Part shown: positions 6,698-45,196 of the stretch, piece after piece | Layout of the letters: the number at the start of each line of letters is the position of its first letter | How positions within the stretch are numbered: position 1 is the stretch's first letter | From: Escherichia phage I29 | Strand: one strand, 5' to 3' | Sequence record: ON286975 | Length of the DNA: 64,000 nt | Position numbers and translations under genes: made by a program | Notes under the pieces: model-generated | The model's input: the letters and a program-made list of their open reading frames with translations, nothing else | The model's database searches: none | What the model was told of the DNA's origin: nothing

Positions 6698-6726
6698 TTG
6701 ACTAATAGTATCAGATAATCTATAAT
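6698..6726 (+). promoter_or_regulatory. sigma70-type promoter
   Basis: TTGACT-17-TATAAT upstream of ORF 6767. Confidence 0.55.
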
Positions 6727-6766
6727 AATGGCTCACTTTGTTAGTGAGCCAGAAATGGAGACAGAT

Positions 6767-7228
6767 ATGAGTAATGTTATGATTCCTAAAAAGACATTTA
6801 TTTCAGTTACTTTGGATTTCCTATCTACCGTTCCCGGGTTTAACGTTCGCACACGAAACGGTCTCCGAGCTGCACTCTTTGCCGTAGGGTTCGATTTAAA
6901 AAGTATTGATGTTCTTCGTGGAAAAAACGTTCGATGCAAAAATAAGCCAACACATTATCGAAAGGCAGATGTATTTGCTGGTGTCATGCGTGCAGACTTT
7001 AGATATCCGCAAATGTATAACGGTGTAGATATTTTAGATGTAGATAAAGCACCCGGTGAGGCAATGCTTGTTCAAGATCTTCCGTATGATATCCCTGTAG
7101 AGGATCGTGTTAATGTAAGAAAGTATACAAAACAATCTGAAAAGGCTGAAGATATTCATATTGTTGATGAACCTTTCAATTTTGAAGATCTGCATCGCCT
7201 GGAAAAATTATTCGGTATTGAAAGCTAA
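6767..7228 (+). CDS. hypothetical protein (possible HhH-like DNA-binding motif)
   Basis: ATG 6767 after GGAGACAG; FNVRTRNGLRAALFAVGFDL resembles helix-hairpin-helix; weak. Confidence 0.45.
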   Translation: MSNVMIPKKTFISVTLDFLSTVPGFNVRTRNGLRAALFAVGFDLKSIDVLRGKNVRCKNKPTHYRKADVFAGVMRADFRYPQMYNGVDILDVDKAPGEAMLVQDLPYDIPVEDRVNVRKYTKQSEKAEDIHIVDEPFNFEDLHRLEKLFGIES

Positions 7229-7238
7229 GGTGGTGAAG

Positions 7239-7469
7239 ATGAGTCATAACTCCAAGTGGAAGGATCTTGGTTTTGCAAGCCGGGCAGAGTATGTTGGTTG
7301 GCTTTGGTTCAATGGCCTGACAAACGATATTAAAATGTATGATGATGTCTATTATGACGAGTATACAGGTAAAATTATAAATATCTCTGTAGAAGAGGAT
7401 ACTTTTATCCAGCAAGATACTGATACCTGCCTTGATAAATACGTTAGTGAAGTGGAGGAAGCAAATTGA
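7239..7469 (+). CDS. hypothetical protein
   Basis: ATG 7239 after AAGGTGG RBS; overlaps nrdA start. Confidence 0.45.
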   Translation: MSHNSKWKDLGFASRAEYVGWLWFNGLTNDIKMYDDVYYDEYTGKIINISVEEDTFIQQDTDTCLDKYVSEVEEAN

Positions 7470-9781
7470 TCACCAAGGTAATTAAAAGCAACGGATGTGA
7501 AGTGGCATTCGATCCAGAACGTTTAAATAAGGCAGCTATTTTCGGTGACGACGGTAACGGCAATTGGTCACACATTGCACTGGATGCATACAAACGACTG
7601 TATGATGGATGTACAACCAAAGAAGTTAACCAAGCTATCATAGACTCCTGTGTTAGCCGTAAAGACGAAGCACATTCCCGTATGGCTGGTCGTGTTCTTA
7701 TTGGTCAGATTTATAAAGAGGCTTTTGGAGGGTTTACAAAGATCCCTTCCTTACCATCATTTTACAATACCATGGTTGAGAAAGGGTATTGGGAGGATAT
7801 GGGCTATAGCTTTACCGAGCTAAACACTTTAGACGCTGTTATTGACCACAGTAAAGATCTCGGTTATGGCTATGCAGTCCTTAAACAGTTTCGCGACAAA
7901 TACGGGATCAAGGATACTCTTAAAGACACCCTGTTTGAATCTCCCCAGATGATGTTTATGGGGATAGCAATGGCTGTCATGAAGAATATGCCGAAAGAAC
8001 GTCGTATCAACGATGTTGTAAAATTGTACACTTATCTGTCCGACTTAAAGATCAATGCCCCGACACCGTACTTAAACGGGCTGCGCACAGGTAAGACAGG
8101 GTATGCATCTTGTTGTGTAATAAAAGCTGACGATACAGCAAAATCTATTGGTGTGGCACGTGAAGTTGCGTACACAATGACGGTTAACCAAGCAGGTATC
8201 GGCTACTATTTATCATCAAGATCTGCAGGCGATGGTGTTCGTGGTAACACTATTAAACATATGGGTAAGATTCCATATTATCGAGGTATTGATGCTGGGG
8301 TTAAGGAGAACAGACAACAATCACGTGGCGGTTCTGCAACAGTATCATTCCTTGCACTGGACCCGCAGATTGATGAGCTAATCCGTTTGAGAAACCCTAT
8401 GACTGTTGCTTCAAAAAGAATCAACACCATGGACTACTCCATCGGTATTAATAGGTCGTTTATCAACCGTGTGGCTAAGAATTTGGATTGGATGCTTGTT
8501 TCTTATAAGCACGCGCCTCAACTGCATGAGGGTATCTTCACCATGTCTATGGAGGAGTTTGATGCAGAGGTTGATCGTATCGCTAAAGATGACAGTATTC
8601 CTAAAACATGGATCCGAGCTAGAGATCTTGCTGTTGAGCTGATCACGCAGCGTACCGAGGTGGGAAGACTGTACGTATACTGGACAGATGAGATGAATAG
8701 ACATACACCTTTTAAAGATGTGATCTATTCAAGTAACCTGTGTGCAGAAATAGCTCTCCCGACAAAAGGCTATTCAGATATGCGTAATATCTTCAAGCAC
8801 GATGTTGATGATGGCGAAGTTGCATTGTGCTTCCTGTCATCTCTTGTAGCTGGAAGGGTTACCCCAGAGGAGTATGAGGATGTTGCATACTACACGGTGC
8901 TTATGATTGACAATGTTATGGAAATCATGACATATCCGTATGAAAATATGGAAAGCACAGTTAAAAAACGCAGATCCATCGGGGTTGGCCTTACCAATGT
9001 TGCACATTTTATTGCCAGCCACAAGGTTACTTACGGATCTCCTGAAAGTAAACAGCTCGTTCACGATCTTGCAGAACTTCACAGCTACAGCTTGCATAAG
9101 GCAAGTTTACGGTTGGCAAAAGAGCGTGGTGTCTGCGAGTGGATGCATAAAACAAAATATCCAGAAGGTTGGTTACCAATCGACACCTACAACAAAGAGG
9201 TCGATAGCGTGGTGAAAGATCCTTCTCTTAAACAGGATTGGGAAGGGTTACGTAAAGAAATCATTGAAAATGGTGGGCTACGTAATAGCGTTCTTGAAGC
9301 ATATATGCCTAATGAAAGCTCTTCGCTGGCAACAAACACCACTAACGGGGTTTATCCTGTCCGTGAGCACATTATCTTTAAAAAGTCGCCACAAGGGCAG
9401 GTGCTGTTTATCGTTCCTGACTATGATGAGTTGAAAGAGTATTACACCTCGGCTTGGGACGTTGATACTAACGACATGATCGATATGTATGCTGTAATTC
9501 AAAAATTCACAGGTCAGGCAATCAGCGCGGATTTATACATAGACTACACCAAGTTGAAAGATGGTAAAATTTCAATGAAGGAGCAGTTAGGGTACCTTAT
9601 CCGTGCCACTAAATTCGGGATGAAGACATGGTATTATTTAAACTCTAGGGTTGGTGCTGGTGACTCCTTGGCAGAGGAACTTCATGCCAAGAAACAGGCT
9701 GAAGATGAAACCAGAAAGAACTATCCTTTGATTGCAGATAGTTCAGTTGAAGATCCGTATTGCGAAAGCTGTGCACTATAA
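7466..9781 (+). CDS. nrdA: ribonucleoside-diphosphate reductase alpha subunit (class I)
   Basis: 771 aa; N-terminal ATP-cone; class I active-site NLCAEIALPT; TTG start after GGAGGA. Confidence 0.9.
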   Translation: MITKVIKSNGCEVAFDPERLNKAAIFGDDGNGNWSHIALDAYKRLYDGCTTKEVNQAIIDSCVSRKDEAHSRMAGRVLIGQIYKEAFGGFTKIPSLPSFYNTMVEKGYWEDMGYSFTELNTLDAVIDHSKDLGYGYAVLKQFRDKYGIKDTLKDTLFESPQMMFMGIAMAVMKNMPKERRINDVVKLYTYLSDLKINAPTPYLNGLRTGKTGYASCCVIKADDTAKSIGVAREVAYTMTVNQAGIGYYLSSRSAGDGVRGNTIKHMGKIPYYRGIDAGVKENRQQSRGGSATVSFLALDPQIDELIRLRNPMTVASKRINTMDYSIGINRSFINRVAKNLDWMLVSYKHAPQLHEGIFTMSMEEFDAEVDRIAKDDSIPKTWIRARDLAVELITQRTEVGRLYVYWTDEMNRHTPFKDVIYSSNLCAEIALPTKGYSDMRNIFKHDVDDGEVALCFLSSLVAGRVTPEEYEDVAYYTVLMIDNVMEIMTYPYENMESTVKKRRSIGVGLTNVAHFIASHKVTYGSPESKQLVHDLAELHSYSLHKASLRLAKERGVCEWMHKTKYPEGWLPIDTYNKEVDSVVKDPSLKQDWEGLRKEIIENGGLRNSVLEAYMPNESSSLATNTTNGVYPVREHIIFKKSPQGQVLFIVPDYDELKEYYTSAWDVDTNDMIDMYAVIQKFTGQAISADLYIDYTKLKDGKISMKEQLGYLIRATKFGMKTWYYLNSRVGAGDSLAEELHAKKQAEDETRKNYPLIADSSVEDPYCESCAL

Positions 9782-30850: not shown

Positions 30851-31990
30851 CATACTCTACCTGTCTGATCAATTTCCCCAACCACATCCTCCATATTTTC
30901 CCTGTCTGTACTACCCCTGCCCCGCCGTGAGTCCCGTCATATCTGGCTTTCCAGCAAATATCACACCCACAAATATCATTGCCTGAAGAGGGTTTCATCT
31001 CATAATATATGCCTTACCTGAAGAGCGCTTCATACACCACGTAATTTTTTTTTTAATTGACCCCCTCCCCGCCGCTGGAGAGGTTGGCTTTTCCCACACA
31101 GACCTGAAGAGTCAGCCAGAAATATCTGAACAGGCCCAATTCTACCACGATTTTGACCTGACCTACAGGAGTGCTGCCAGGCGGACGAAATGGGAATCAT
31201 TCTCATTCTTATAACAATTCTCAAATATCGAGGCAGTGAGGCAAATTAATAGGTGAGGCCGTTCACACAATGGCACAACATTTGCAACCTATCTTGTGGG
31301 AGTGAATGAGAATACCTATCATTGTGAGAATAGTTATCATTACGGGCAATTTAACATAATACCCATTATGCGCACCGCTGGTGATACATACAGGGAAAAT
31401 ATGGAGGATGTGGTTGGGGAAATTGATCAGACAGGTAGAGTATGCATACTCTACCTGTCTGATCAATTTCCCCAACCACATCCTCCATATTTTCCCTGTC
31501 TGTACTACCCCTGCCCCGCCGTGAGTCCCGTCATATCTGGCTTTCCAGCAAATATCACACCCACAAATATCATTGCCTGAAGAGGGTTTCATCTCATAAT
31601 ATATGCCTTACCTGAAGAGCGCTTCATACACCACGTAATTTTTTTTTTAATTGACCCCCTCCCCGCCGCTGGAGAGGTTGGCTTTTCCCACACAGACCTG
31701 AAGAGTCAGCCAGAAATATCTGAACAGGCCCAATTCTACCACGATTTTGACCTGACCTACAGGAGTGCTGCCAGGCGGACGAAATGGGAATCATTCTCAT
31801 TCTTATAACAATTCTCAAATATCGAGGCAGTGAGGCAAATTAATAGGTGAGGCCGTTCACACAATGGCACAACATTTGCAACCTATCTTGTGGGAGTGAA
31901 TGAGAATACCTATCATTGTGAGAATAGTTATCATTACGGGCAATTTAACATAATACCCATTATGCGCACCGCTGGTGATACATACAGGGA
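30851..31990. repeat. tandem direct repeat, 594-bp unit x 1.9 copies
   Basis: 30851-31444 is repeated at 31445-31990 with identical sequence where compared; unit contains three CCTGAAGAG motifs and a T10 run. Confidence 0.9.
31393..31496. repeat. perfect 104-bp palindrome at the tandem-repeat junction
   Basis: gggaaaatatggaggatgtggttggggaaattgatcagacaggtagagtatg is immediately followed by its exact reverse complement. Confidence 0.9.
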
Positions 31991-32272
31991 TTGATAACAT
32001 GAGTTACAGTTTACACACATAACAATTATATTTCTTACTATTTGTGTGGGATATAGTTAGCAACCAATAGATTAGATATTGACCTGTAGACTTCCAACCG
32101 TCTAGACGTCTAAACGCCCACACAACAAGGCTTATACATACACAACTGAATGTAAACAGGGCCGCAAAAATGCTACCATACCAGATTGTAAATTTTCATG
32201 CAGCACTTGACAAAGAGGAGAAAAACTTGTCTGACATAATGGTGACACTGAACATAATTGACATGCCTGACT

Positions 32273-34216: not shown

Positions 34217-34489
34217 TTACTTACGGCGGCAGAATTCAAGCGTTTTTAATTGATAATCTTCCTCAGCCTGGAGTACAACCGCCTCGATCATTTCGTTGGC
34301 ATTGTTGAAGCCATATCCTTTAGCGAATTCATCCGCACCACCTTCGTGATCATGTTCTGCGTTCATCGCTTCCACAAAATGGAATTCAAGATTATTGAGG
34401 TAGGGGCTTGATGTTCCGTCCTCTTTTTCAATGAGATCCCAAATAGCATTAAAACGTGATTCGACTTCTTGGTTAATCCAACTTGACAC
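34217..34489 (-). CDS. acidic hypothetical protein
   Basis: GTG start after AGAGGAAAAC; 90 aa. Confidence 0.5.
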   Translation of the reverse strand: MSSWINQEVESRFNAIWDLIEKEDGTSSPYLNNLEFHFVEAMNAEHDHEGGADEFAKGYGFNNANEMIEAVVLQAEEDYQLKTLEFCRRK

Positions 34490-43238: not shown

Positions 43239-43436
43239 TTATTTTTTATTAAACCAGTGGTTGATCTGGCCTTTTGTCAGGGCGCAACGATTAAGCTGTT
43301 GCCGGGTATAGCTCTGACCGCGACGGAATTTATAAAGGCCTTGCCCGTTGTTGATGGTTACGTCCACCTGGCAAACCATTTGATCGGTGACGGCCTGGTA
43401 AGTGTTGCGACGTACTTTAATTCCGTAGGCGTTCAT
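43239..43436 (-). CDS. small basic protein
   Basis: 65 aa; AGAGGATAAAAAATC RBS. Confidence 0.45.
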   Translation of the reverse strand: MNAYGIKVRRNTYQAVTDQMVCQVDVTINNGQGLYKFRRGQSYTRQQLNRCALTKGQINHWFNKK

Positions 43437-43805
43437 GATTTTTTATCCTCTCTGTTAATTAGTGTGGTGTTGTTCACCTTGCGAGGATAAGAATAACAGA
43501 ACTCTCCGAGCTGTCAACCATTAGTTAGAATTATTTTTTGGGAAGAATTCTCCAGCCGCCGCCCCTGCCAGGTTAACCATCATTTTTCGTACTCTTCTTT
43601 ATGTTCCAACGCTCCCGCCATAGCCTTTTCAACCAGGGTGATAACTTCAGCGGCGTTGATCGCTACATTTTCCAGGGGATTATATTACTTTTCATTTTTG
43701 TACCTCCTCTTCAATTGTTACCTGCCCTGTAGCATAGGCCTGCCAGGCTGGCCCCGCCAGGTTGCAACGGTTAGCGCATCAGGTTAGAAAAATTTTTTGA
43801 AAAGT

Positions 43806-43834
43806 GTTGACAGCGGCCCCGCCAGGTGGCACAA
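43806..43834 (+). promoter_or_regulatory. sigma70-type promoter (plus strand, inside minus-strand region)
   Basis: TTGACA-17-CACAAT; overlaps GCCCCGCCAGGT motif. Confidence 0.4.
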
Positions 43835-43841
43835 TATACCT

Positions 43842-43935
43842 ATCGAAAGGACGGCAGGCACCGGTGACGGGGGAGACAACCACCGGGGATGGGCGCTGCA
43901 TAAAATGAGAACGGTTATCATTATCATTTAAAAAT
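43842..43935 (+). ncRNA. candidate small RNA unit 1
   Basis: Hairpin ccggtg-(acgggggagacaac)-caccgg; about 75% nucleotide identity to unit 2; contains an 8-codon Ile-rich mini-ORF (MRTVIIII, 43904-43930). Confidence 0.3.
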
Positions 43936-43949
43936 TTATGCAAAAAATC

Positions 43950-43980
43950 CTTGCTTTCTTTGTCCTGTGTGATACTATAA
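43950..43980 (+). promoter_or_regulatory. sigma70-type promoter (plus strand)
   Basis: TATAAT -10 at 43975-43980; weak -35 TTGCTT. Confidence 0.4.
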
Positions 43981-43986
43981 TAACAA

Positions 43987-44072
43987 GCCGGGGCAACAGG
44001 GGCCGGGAGACAATCACCGGGGGTGCCCGTTATTCTGCAAACGAGAATGATTATCATTCAAAATTCTAAATG
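43987..44072 (+). ncRNA. candidate small RNA unit 2
   Basis: Paralogue of unit 1: shared GGGAGACAA(C/T)CACCGGGG and GAGAA(C/T)G(G/A)TTATCATT; mini-ORF MIIIQNSK at 44046-44072. Confidence 0.3.
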
Positions 44073-44169
44073 AGAACTCCTCGCATTTAATAAATTTAAT
44101 TAGCGTGCTAATTACCCTCCGTAACAATTTCCTATAAAACAGTATCCCATAAAATATTCCCATATAGAA

Positions 44170-44350
44170 ATTTTAAAAATCCATTTCTGAAAACGAAAAA
44201 TCGATTTCGTTCCCAAAAATTTCAGGTCGAGCTCCGGAACGATTTCCAGAAAATCCGATTCAGAAAACGAAAAACAGATCGAGTACTGAGAAATTTATCG
44301 AGAAAAATTTTCAGAAAATTCAATCTTTGAAACGAAAAACAGATCGAGTA
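44170..44350. repeat. degenerate tandem repeats (about 3 copies, 65-75 bp period)
   Basis: Cores GAAAACGAAAAA(T/C)(C/A)GAT... at 44188, 44262, 44328; copy 1 carries inverted repeat AACGAAA/TTTCGTT. Confidence 0.6.
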
Positions 44351-44596
44351 CCCGGAAAGCTGTACCGCAACCTCAAGATAGTGGTTAGACTATTACCATA
44401 AAAAGTCAAGGGTAAGTGGAGGAAGTTCTAGTAGAAGGATGTGAGCATGTGCGGGAAATCTGTAGTGGTGGTCTGGAATATGGTGCAAACGATAGGATGA
44501 GCGATTCAGCTTGTCGCGCCTACTCTGAAAAATCCATTTTAGTTTTCGATCCATTTTCTGATTTTCTAAGAATTTTAAAATATCTGGTCCGGTGAA

Positions 44597-44631
44597 ATAT
44601 CAAAAGGAGGAAATCCATTTTAGAAATCCTC
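44597..44631 (-). terminator. intrinsic terminator (minus strand)
   Basis: ggagga-(15 nt)-tcctcc followed on the minus strand by TTTTGATATTT; 3' of gene 44664-44996. Confidence 0.55.
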
Positions 44632-44663
44632 CTGATCTCTAGCAACCTGATAACTTAAAAATA

Positions 44664-44996
44664 TCAGGTGCCCAGTTTGTTCTTTCCTTTATACAACCGT
44701 AAGGGTATAGTTTTTGTAACAGTCCATCTCCCCAGCCCTTCCCAGTTCCAGTTGTAGGCATGGTACCCGGTTACGCATGCACTGCTAGAGTGGTCATAGG
44801 CATAAGAGAACGCTATACGCACCAAATGGAACCAGTCTTTCCACGGTTGTGGTCCGTAAGCTTTTCTCCAACACCGACACAAACTAAATGTCTCAAGAAT
44901 AGGTAGGATAACAAATCCATACACCGCCACCAGAATAGCCAGCGCAATGATTGTCAGGAATACATACCCTGCAGTTGAAACGATGATCTCTGTCAT
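44664..44996 (-). CDS. membrane protein
   Basis: N-terminal hydrophobic region EIIVSTAGYVFLTIIALAILVAVYGFVILPIL. Confidence 0.5.
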   Translation of the reverse strand: MTEIIVSTAGYVFLTIIALAILVAVYGFVILPILETFSLCRCWRKAYGPQPWKDWFHLVRIAFSYAYDHSSSACVTGYHAYNWNWEGLGRWTVTKTIPLRLYKGKNKLGT

Positions 44997-45196
44997 TTGT
45001 CGTCCCCTTTCTTACGGATATAGATGTGAGAGCCTGCCTGTATATAAATTTCTCGACCATCTTCTGCAAAGATATGAAATACACGATCACCTTCATACTC
45101 GATACGTGATATCTTCATAATGGTCTTTCCACCTGGGATGCGGATCTCGTCCCCCACAGCGATGTTCCATGCAGATTTAAGCTTAAACATCTGCAC
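44993..45196 (-). CDS. hypothetical protein
   Basis: 67 aa; ATGA coupling. Confidence 0.45.
   Translation of the reverse strand: MQMFKLKSAWNIAVGDEIRIPGGKTIMKISRIEYEGDRVFHIFAEDGREIYIQAGSHIYIRKKGDDK

Follow-up and report, generated by a model that had tools for sequence, protein, structure and literature searches.

Iteron arrays such as lambda ori, P1 oriR and P4 ori/crr consist of direct repeats of a short box at a unique non-coding site, with AT-rich DNA adjoining. The iterons lie about 22 bp (two helical turns) apart and the initiator is usually encoded nearby; in P4 crr, long direct repeats each carry short binding boxes. Transcription-primed phage origins, such as the T7 primary origin (promoters 1.1A/1.1B and an AT-rich region) and T4 oriF and oriG, have tandem promoters that read into a gene-free, mostly AT-rich stretch without repeated protein-binding boxes. 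Clusters of repeats over about 120–160 bp are also found at packaging sites, such as the GATC-containing hexamers of P1 pac, which flank the cut, and the three R sites of lambda cosB. A further type of repeat is pseudo-ToxI of phage PhiTE, an RNA that mimics a type III antitoxin and comes from a tandem array of a 36-nt unit (about 34–45 nt in this class, which forms pseudoknots) in an A-rich, possibly transcribed non-coding stretch.

PhiTE belongs with the rV5-like phages (Vequintavirinae), large lytic phages that are widely used as candidates for therapy and biocontrol of E. coli, Salmonella, Klebsiella, Cronobacter, and Pectobacterium. Neither the replication origin nor the pac site of these phages is mapped, and their early regulation is poorly understood. 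Here, we describe repeats in Escherichia phage I29 (ON286975), of which a stretch of 64,000 nucleotides, referred to as the window, was analyzed. The repeats represent the version found in Vequintavirus of a non-coding, single-copy array that is common to Vequintavirinae. In the rV5 genome paper, the gap that contains the array has promoters P195 and P195A at its left edge and no entry within (PMC3606486, Table S4). Neither this paper nor the one on the CB7 genome (PMC7344957) annotates a feature here, and our literature search found no description of the array or of the surrounding module.

In its direct repeats of a short box, unique non-coding site, and adjoining AT-rich DNA, the array resembles the iteron origins, but its units are bipartite and 63–78 bp apart with boxes 25 bp apart, its AT-richness does not extend to Certrevirus, and there is no adjacent Rep or initiator gene. 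It shares with the T7 and T4 origins the tandem promoters aimed into a gene-free, mostly AT-rich stretch, in a genome with an annotated helicase/primase and DNA polymerase as in transcription-primed phages; unlike them, it has repeated boxes, predicted host sigma-70 promoters, and a strand skew that does not support an origin. The cluster length and the headful packaging of the family recall P1 pac and cosB, from which the array differs by its distance from the terminase genes, its unrelated box sequence, and its associated promoters. Compared with pseudo-ToxI, the array has a longer unit (65–78 nt), lies at another locus, shows no similarity or fold, and has three copies that are fixed. In principle the array resembles those of the iteron or cosB type, from which its long bipartite units and its fixed geometry of three boxes set it apart. 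The observation and the conservation of the element are both solid, and the functions discussed below are hypotheses drawn from sequence. The array offers a concrete target for mutation in locating the origin or pac site, a bait for its putative binding protein, and a region to spare in genome engineering.

The repeat array and its gene-free setting

Between positions 43400 and 44720, the window is 99.9% identical to Shigella phage CM1 (MK962749.1), an rV5-like myovirus of the genus Vequintavirus (window position = CM1 record position − 74258). The array sits within a 1.2 kb gap (43437–44663) that has no genes in the CM1 record and is flanked on both sides by small genes, all on the minus strand. 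The open reading frames that annotators have called in the gap are not kept among relatives. They were judged non-coding because indels are not multiples of three and because the 33-codon terminator ORF is truncated in DrSchubert. A tRNA/tmRNA search found none. The genes annotated as helicase/primase and DNA polymerase are 10–15 kb from the array. When neighboring genes were compared across genera, none was conserved, and no initiator-like gene was found to be kept next to the locus. The small plus-strand genes adjoining the module were considered as candidate binding proteins and rejected, as they are not conserved across genera. A neighboring gene of 110 amino acids, tried as an anchor to distant relatives, is restricted to the genus Vequintavirus.

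A repeat search yields three in-register 57-nt copies at 44163–44219, 44237–44293, and 44302–44358. Copies 1 and 3 are 63% and 77% identical to copy 2, the reference, and the start-to-start spacings are 74 and 65 bp. The initial annotation, made from the letters of the sequence, had noticed three imperfect copies at 65–75 bp spacing, and this description stands; the repeats are non-random against shuffled sequence. The 24-mer GAAAACGAAAAACAGATCGAGTAC occurs twice at three or fewer mismatches, where 0.00 occurrences are expected from 100 shuffles. Self-BLAST of the region, against a database of the 64 kb window and 100 kb of the FV3 genome, gives an off-register match of 111 nt with 71% identity (E = 2e-9). 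Tandem Repeats Finder does not report the 65–74 bp period because the copies are too degenerate.

Every unit contains a fixed bipartite core on the plus strand, in which a left box, AAT(C/T)C(A/G), is followed by exactly 19 nt and a right box. Unit 1 (44163–44219) has the left box AATCCA at 44178–44183 and a degenerate right box, GATTTCGTTC, at 44203–44212. In unit 2 (44237–44293) the left box is AATCCG (44252–44257) and the right box GATCGAGTAC (44277–44286). Unit 3 (44302–44358) carries AATTCA at 44317–44322 and again GATCGAGTAC at 44342–44351, with 19 intervening nucleotides that vary within the genus. An extra half-unit (44214–44236, plus strand) consists of a AAAAATTT tract and a right-box variant, GGTCGAGCTC, at 44225–44234; it is found in most Vequintavirus genomes examined and is missing from FV3.

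Copy 1 also carries the inverted repeat that had been pointed out earlier, and its presence is borne out, with arms of 16 nt at 44183–44198 and 44205–44220 that are 81% complementary. Folded on the minus strand, copy 1 reaches −11.8 kcal/mol (z = −3.2 against shuffles). A terminator scan flags the site on the minus strand, with three GC pairs of 16, an offset T-run, and one site against 1.9 expected. The hairpin, which the initial annotation had emphasized, is conserved in Vequintavirus but specific to this genus; it is absent from unit 1 in other genera and lies outside the conserved design of the repeat.

The array is unique. The right-box pattern GATCGAG[AT]AC occurs in the array only within the 64 kb window, and in the 100 kb of FV3 there are two isolated chance copies outside the array. 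This confinement argues for a unique cis element rather than a dispersed operator. A second genomic copy suggested by two BLAST "places" in relatives was dismissed, since these are off-register self-matches. The two-unit pattern has no match in one genome each of 185,579 bacterial and archaeal species, and the array has no match in E. coli chromosomes. Mimicry of host or plasmid DNA was likewise rejected, as the sole "plasmid" match, CP057073.1, is probably a phage genome. This PLSDB entry, labeled a "non-mobilizable E. coli plasmid" from cattle feces, matches the array at 96.8% and has a Vequintavirus-like size of 137,565 bp; the phage genome probably entered the record through carry-over or a carrier state.

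Conservation and geometry across Vequintavirinae

The region is carried by 116 phage records at 84–99% identity. Sixteen of the records, with MG0656xx accessions, are labeled "Campylobacter phage" with C. jejuni as host and are about 94% identical to E. coli Vequintavirus at the region; their host labels are doubtful. In an alignment of eight of the most divergent Vequintavirus genomes, 83.7% of the array columns are invariant, whereas the third codon positions in flanking genes reach 65.7% (p = 1.4e-6), which places the array under constraint by purifying selection. Both perfect GATCGAGTAC right boxes, those of units 2 and 3, are 100% invariant in 8/8 genomes. In unit 1, most Vequintavirus genomes have a decayed right box, GATTTCGTYC, with an extra GGTCGAG 22 bp further on; FV3 is without the decayed box and without the extra GGTCGAG and has the two perfect boxes only. 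Box-to-box spacing within the genus is 52–76 bp, and the outer boxes span 139 bp in most genomes when the decayed first box is counted.

To the right of the array is a hypervariable spacer of 168 bp (44359–44526), in which 44% of the alignment columns are invariant, below the level of third codon positions (p = 8e-7). It occurs in two haplotypes whose indels are not multiples of three, and its variability reflects either the exchange of divergent cassettes or diversifying selection. Across genera the length of the spacer is roughly kept, and its sequence is unalignable. Beyond the spacer lies a conserved AT-rich block (about 44527–44601, plus strand) with AAATCCATTTTAG at 44530, GATCCATTTTCTG at 44548, and AAATATC at 44578 and 44595. 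PVP-SE1 and Mydo have equivalent AAA(A/T)CCATTT motifs, and all genera examined share the AAATATC repeats.

BLAST with the array and the neighboring genes gave no match outside Vequintavirus. More distant loci were compared through an element upstream of the array (44003–44094) that is 80–90% identical across Vequintavirinae and Stephanstirmvirinae, in genomes that otherwise no longer align; the same conservation was noted at 43840–43900. Sigma-70-like promoters directed against the flanking genes precede the element, which matches no Rfam family and gives no convincing consensus fold on the plus strand. Next to it is a small hairpin at 44096–44114, TTAATTAGC..GCTAATTA, in which substitutions among relatives keep pairing (G-U) on the plus strand only. 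The loci of CB7, CR8, PVP-SE1, Mydo, and phAPEC8 were compared in this way, and homologous arrays were found at the syntenic locus of PVP-SE1, Mydo, CR8, and CB7. The array thereby extends over the genera Seunavirus, Mydovirus, Certrevirus, and Vequintavirus. Ten IMG/VR contigs and seven metagenome contigs carry further homologous arrays; the first IMG/VR pattern scan gave mostly high-GC false positives, which were filtered by composition. The check on conservation in relatives that the initial annotation had proposed, as well as the one against shuffled sequence, therefore came out in favor of the repeats.

Two other repeats were encountered in these comparisons. In phAPEC8, from the sister subfamily, the upstream conserved elements are kept and a different repeat takes the place of the array. 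This repeat (locus positions 2720–2920) reads AAACTTTAAAT...ACTTTCAyTTTTGTAAA and has a sigma-70-like promoter between its copies. An IMG/VR contig of 149,090 bp contains, at 6700–7650, about 13 copies of a non-coding 77-bp repeat with AAAAATTTTT and GATCGAGAAC. The proteins of this contig have no similarity to Vequintavirinae, and it is probably an unrelated virus whose repeat merely looks alike.

Read on the plus strand, the loci share a common layout. On the left are sigma-70-like promoters with GC-rich conserved units, followed by one to four Fur-box-like palindromes; on the right are the three repeat units, the unalignable spacer, the AAA(A/T)CCATTT motifs (in PVP-SE1 and Mydo), and the AAATATC repeats. 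Across lineages the core of the unit is AAT(A/C/T)C(G/A)-N19-GATCGAG(A/T)(A/C)C, with the two boxes 25 bp apart from start to start and a unit period of about 65–78 bp. All lineages examined outside Vequintavirus have AATNCN-N19-GATCGAGNNC in three units; where the left box is AATACG, the gap to GATCGAG is 19 nt without exception. The two right-box spacings are 63/78 bp in Certrevirus, 67/75 bp in PVP-SE1, and 67/74 bp in Mydo, and fall at 63–68 and 74–78 bp in the IMG/VR and metagenome contigs. The outer right boxes are 141–143 bp apart in all arrays outside Vequintavirus, an apparent compensation between the two spacings that has essentially two clades behind it. The right boxes of unit 1 in other genera are perfect palindromes of 10–12 bp, from CTCGATCGAG up to TCTCGATCGAGA. 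Perfect palindromic boxes are typical for the sites of dimeric DNA-binding proteins.

When PVP-SE1 and Mydo are compared unit by unit, units 1, 2, and 3 are 0.78, 0.83, and 0.69 identical, against 0.60–0.74 between units of one genome. Units 1 and 2 exceed this range and unit 3 falls inside it. From these positional matches the triplication appears to be older than the genera, and it has been maintained. The age and conservation of the array bear on the notion that the repeats are a neutral relic of an old local duplication. The degeneracy of the copies (63–77% identity), uncalled by Tandem Repeats Finder, would suit such an origin. Against this, conservation of the array within the genus exceeds that of synonymous sites, and three units with their box geometry are retained in genera whose surrounding DNA no longer aligns. 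These comparative data effectively refute a relic.

The geometry is also of interest for DNA packaging. The rV5-like phages package DNA by headfuls and have circularly permuted genomes, and their pac site is unmapped (PhiTE, PMC3475682; CB7, PMC7344957; PMC13211470; PMC8407724). If the locus were the pac site, the small terminase would bind the three units together with the AAA(A/T)CCATTT/AAATATC repeats, and the first headful cut would be made in the spacer between them. The packaging mode of the family and the uniqueness of the element in the genome are in line with this, as are boxes that flank a spacer of about 170 bp with free sequence and roughly kept length, a distance of 236–251 bp from box 3 to the first AAATATC in five genera, and a GATC within the right box as in the P1 pac hexamers. 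However, a long distance separates the locus from the terminase genes (the CB7 large terminase is CB7_1/3, whereas the array locus of this phage falls between CB7_123 and CB7_124), a pac site would have no obvious use for tandem promoters, the start positions of GenBank records are not clustered at the locus, and GATC is ordinary in the genome, neither depleted nor enriched (345 observed vs 330 expected). A packaging site is, on balance, an unlikely identity for the array.

Promoters, strand composition and transcription

The promoters predicted in the gap are directed at the array and run counter to the flanking genes. A sigma-70-like promoter, P1 (TTGACA-17-CACAAT with TG), is predicted at 43807–43835 on the plus strand, and a second candidate on this strand, TTGCTT...TATAAT at 43951–43981, was spotted by eye only. 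Just upstream of unit 1, a genus-invariant TAAAAT hexamer (44150–44155, plus strand) is a possible −10 element of a weak promoter with a poor −35; at the equivalent position, a clear sigma-70-like promoter is seen in PVP-SE1 and Mydo. A consensus scan predicts plus-strand promoters at 2300, 2460, and 2586 in PVP-SE1 and at 2278, 2438, and 2595 in Mydo, and in both phages the last of them ends about 13–15 bp ahead of the array. 

In A content, the array ranks first among 6380 segments of 200 bp in the 64 kb, and A exceeds T on the plus strand in the arrays of all five genera examined. Phasing of A-tracts at 10–11 bp, as in DNA bending, is not consistent across genera. The upstream promoters and the excess of A are equally compatible with a transcribed RNA. 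Such a non-coding RNA would run rightwards from the promoters or leftwards to the copy-1 hairpin, and a host or defense factor would be bound or titrated by its repeated, single-stranded A-rich modules. Besides the promoters immediately upstream in PVP-SE1 and Mydo and the composition of the plus strand, a T/C polymorphism in the copy-1 hairpin that keeps pairing only in minus-strand RNA is consistent with this. There is also the precedent of a repeat RNA decoy, pseudo-ToxI of the rV5-like phage PhiTE (PMC3475682). A direct link to pseudo-ToxI was rejected because the loci are not syntenic, the array locus of PhiTE being phiTE_078/079.

The search for structure gave little sign of an RNA with a defined fold. 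No consensus RNA structure was found in 15 aligned units on either strand, whole-array folds are no better than shuffles (z = −1.2 and −0.1), and Rfam, at gathering and permissive thresholds, matched nothing in the window and five related loci. Moreover, the number of units is fixed at three in all lineages, whereas a decoy evolved by expansion should vary; E. coli chromosomes and plasmids hold nothing similar to mimic, and no plus-strand terminator delimits a discrete RNA. The palindromic boxes of unit 1, like the conserved box sequence, the fixed 25-bp box offset, and the conserved outer span, suggest recognition of duplex DNA. An RNA as the functional product is therefore doubtful, with the promoters into the array, the plus-strand excess of A, and the top A-richness of the window array on the side of transcription.

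The locus is an exact operon boundary. An intrinsic-terminator-like hairpin (AGGAGGA...TCCTCCT with a T-run), recognized in the alignment and read from the sequence at 44605–44633 on the minus strand, marks the end of the upstream minus-strand operon; substitutions in relatives keep its pairing on the minus strand only, by compensatory change or G-U wobble. Promoter-like sites at 43517–43490 and 43235–43207 correspond to P195A and P195 of the rV5 paper. The genes from 33400 to 64000 are all on the minus strand, yet a GC-skew changepoint falls at 44650–45150 (p = 0.009), and coding-strand skew at four-fold sites passes from −0.18 to +0.19 across the locus. The sign of this step is that of converging forks, opposite to an origin, but the operon boundary coincides with the step, confounds it and could explain it.

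Fur-box-like palindromes are a further part of the module. One, CGAGAATGATTATCA at 44042–44056, lies inside the element 44003–44094, and a second lies at 43906–43920. Their consensus, TGAGAATNATTCTCA, differs from the Fur 7-1-7 box by one base in each half-site. It scores 43 hits at three or fewer mismatches, against 17 expected, and the hits with two or fewer mismatches are all in non-coding DNA at 31191–31933 and 43906–44056, except for those at 34251 and 35331. The Fur-like box beside the array is conserved in five other genera. The presence of such palindromes hints that the phage program may be linked to the iron status of the host.

A purely local function in transcription would account for part of this evidence. 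The boxes would then be operators or roadblocks where the rightward promoters meet the leftward early operon, perhaps acting with the Fur-like palindromes and having no role in replication or packaging. The operon boundary with its terminator and nearby P195A/P195 sites agrees with such control, as does the density of other conserved DNA motifs in the gap (Fur-like boxes, TGTAAAGA direct repeats, AAATATC repeats), and the skew step fits two differently expressed transcription units. Operators, however, usually lie near or overlap promoters and are spaced for cooperativity, whereas here three sites extend over 140 bp downstream. The box is not reused at other promoters in the genome, and the deep conservation of the geometry exceeds what simple roadblocking seems to need. 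Control of local transcription alone is accordingly rather improbable.

A candidate origin of replication

The array probably acts as a DNA site for protein binding. This part of the initial annotation, which had proposed an iteron-like protein-binding array, fits a single-copy element under purifying selection with fixed geometry, invariant and palindromic boxes, and no conserved RNA fold; the iteron comparison itself fails on the spacing, as the boxes do not recur at about 22 bp. Membership in a replication origin is a more tentative proposition, to which we give somewhat less than even chances. Of the roles considered it is the most likely, because predicted promoters read into gene-free DNA and the genome is annotated with a helicase/primase and a DNA polymerase. 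Each line of evidence has a second explanation: the geometry of the boxes would suit a pac site as well as an origin, and promoters that read into DNA without genes would suit an RNA as well as an origin.

Taken together, the preferred reading, offered with reserve, is a cis-acting protein-binding array that would most likely form part of a transcription-activated origin. A sequence-specific protein of phage or host would bind the three bipartite units, and its binding would organize about 140 bp of DNA, possibly by wrapping, into one nucleoprotein complex. Tandem host-type promoters would fire into the gene-free stretch, against all neighboring genes, and transcription would activate or prime the origin, as it does in T7, at T4 oriF/oriG, or in lambda. 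The replacement of the repeat in phAPEC8 is the behavior of iterons that co-evolve with their binding protein. Against an origin are the lack of a candidate initiator conserved beside the locus and a spacing that departs from that of classical iterons.

The AT content of the array is 66–68% in Vequintavirus, Seunavirus, and Mydovirus and 51% in Certrevirus, so the array is not itself a conserved unwinding element; the right block is 67–73% AT in all four genera measured. The secondary origin that had been suggested earlier therefore survives as a hypothesis only, with the promoters aimed into the array in its favor and the unit spacing, the AT content in Certrevirus, and the direction of the GC skew against it.

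A bolder version of the origin reading, which we consider improbable on present sequence comparisons, is that the array represents the core of an undescribed nucleoprotein organizer of the subfamily, within a conserved control region that has tandem host-type promoters and Fur-box-like operators. Its three bipartite sites would hold about 141–143 bp, which is about nucleosome-sized, around a protein, and the origin (or pac site) that has long been missing in the rV5-like phages would be found here, possibly coupled to the iron status of the host.

Motifs like those at the array locus recur elsewhere in the window. A perfect 594-bp tandem duplication lies at 30851–32000, in a large non-coding region where plus- and minus-strand gene blocks converge, and could be genuine or an assembly artefact. 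Each of its copies contains four Fur-like boxes and an AAATATC pair like that at the right end of the array locus.
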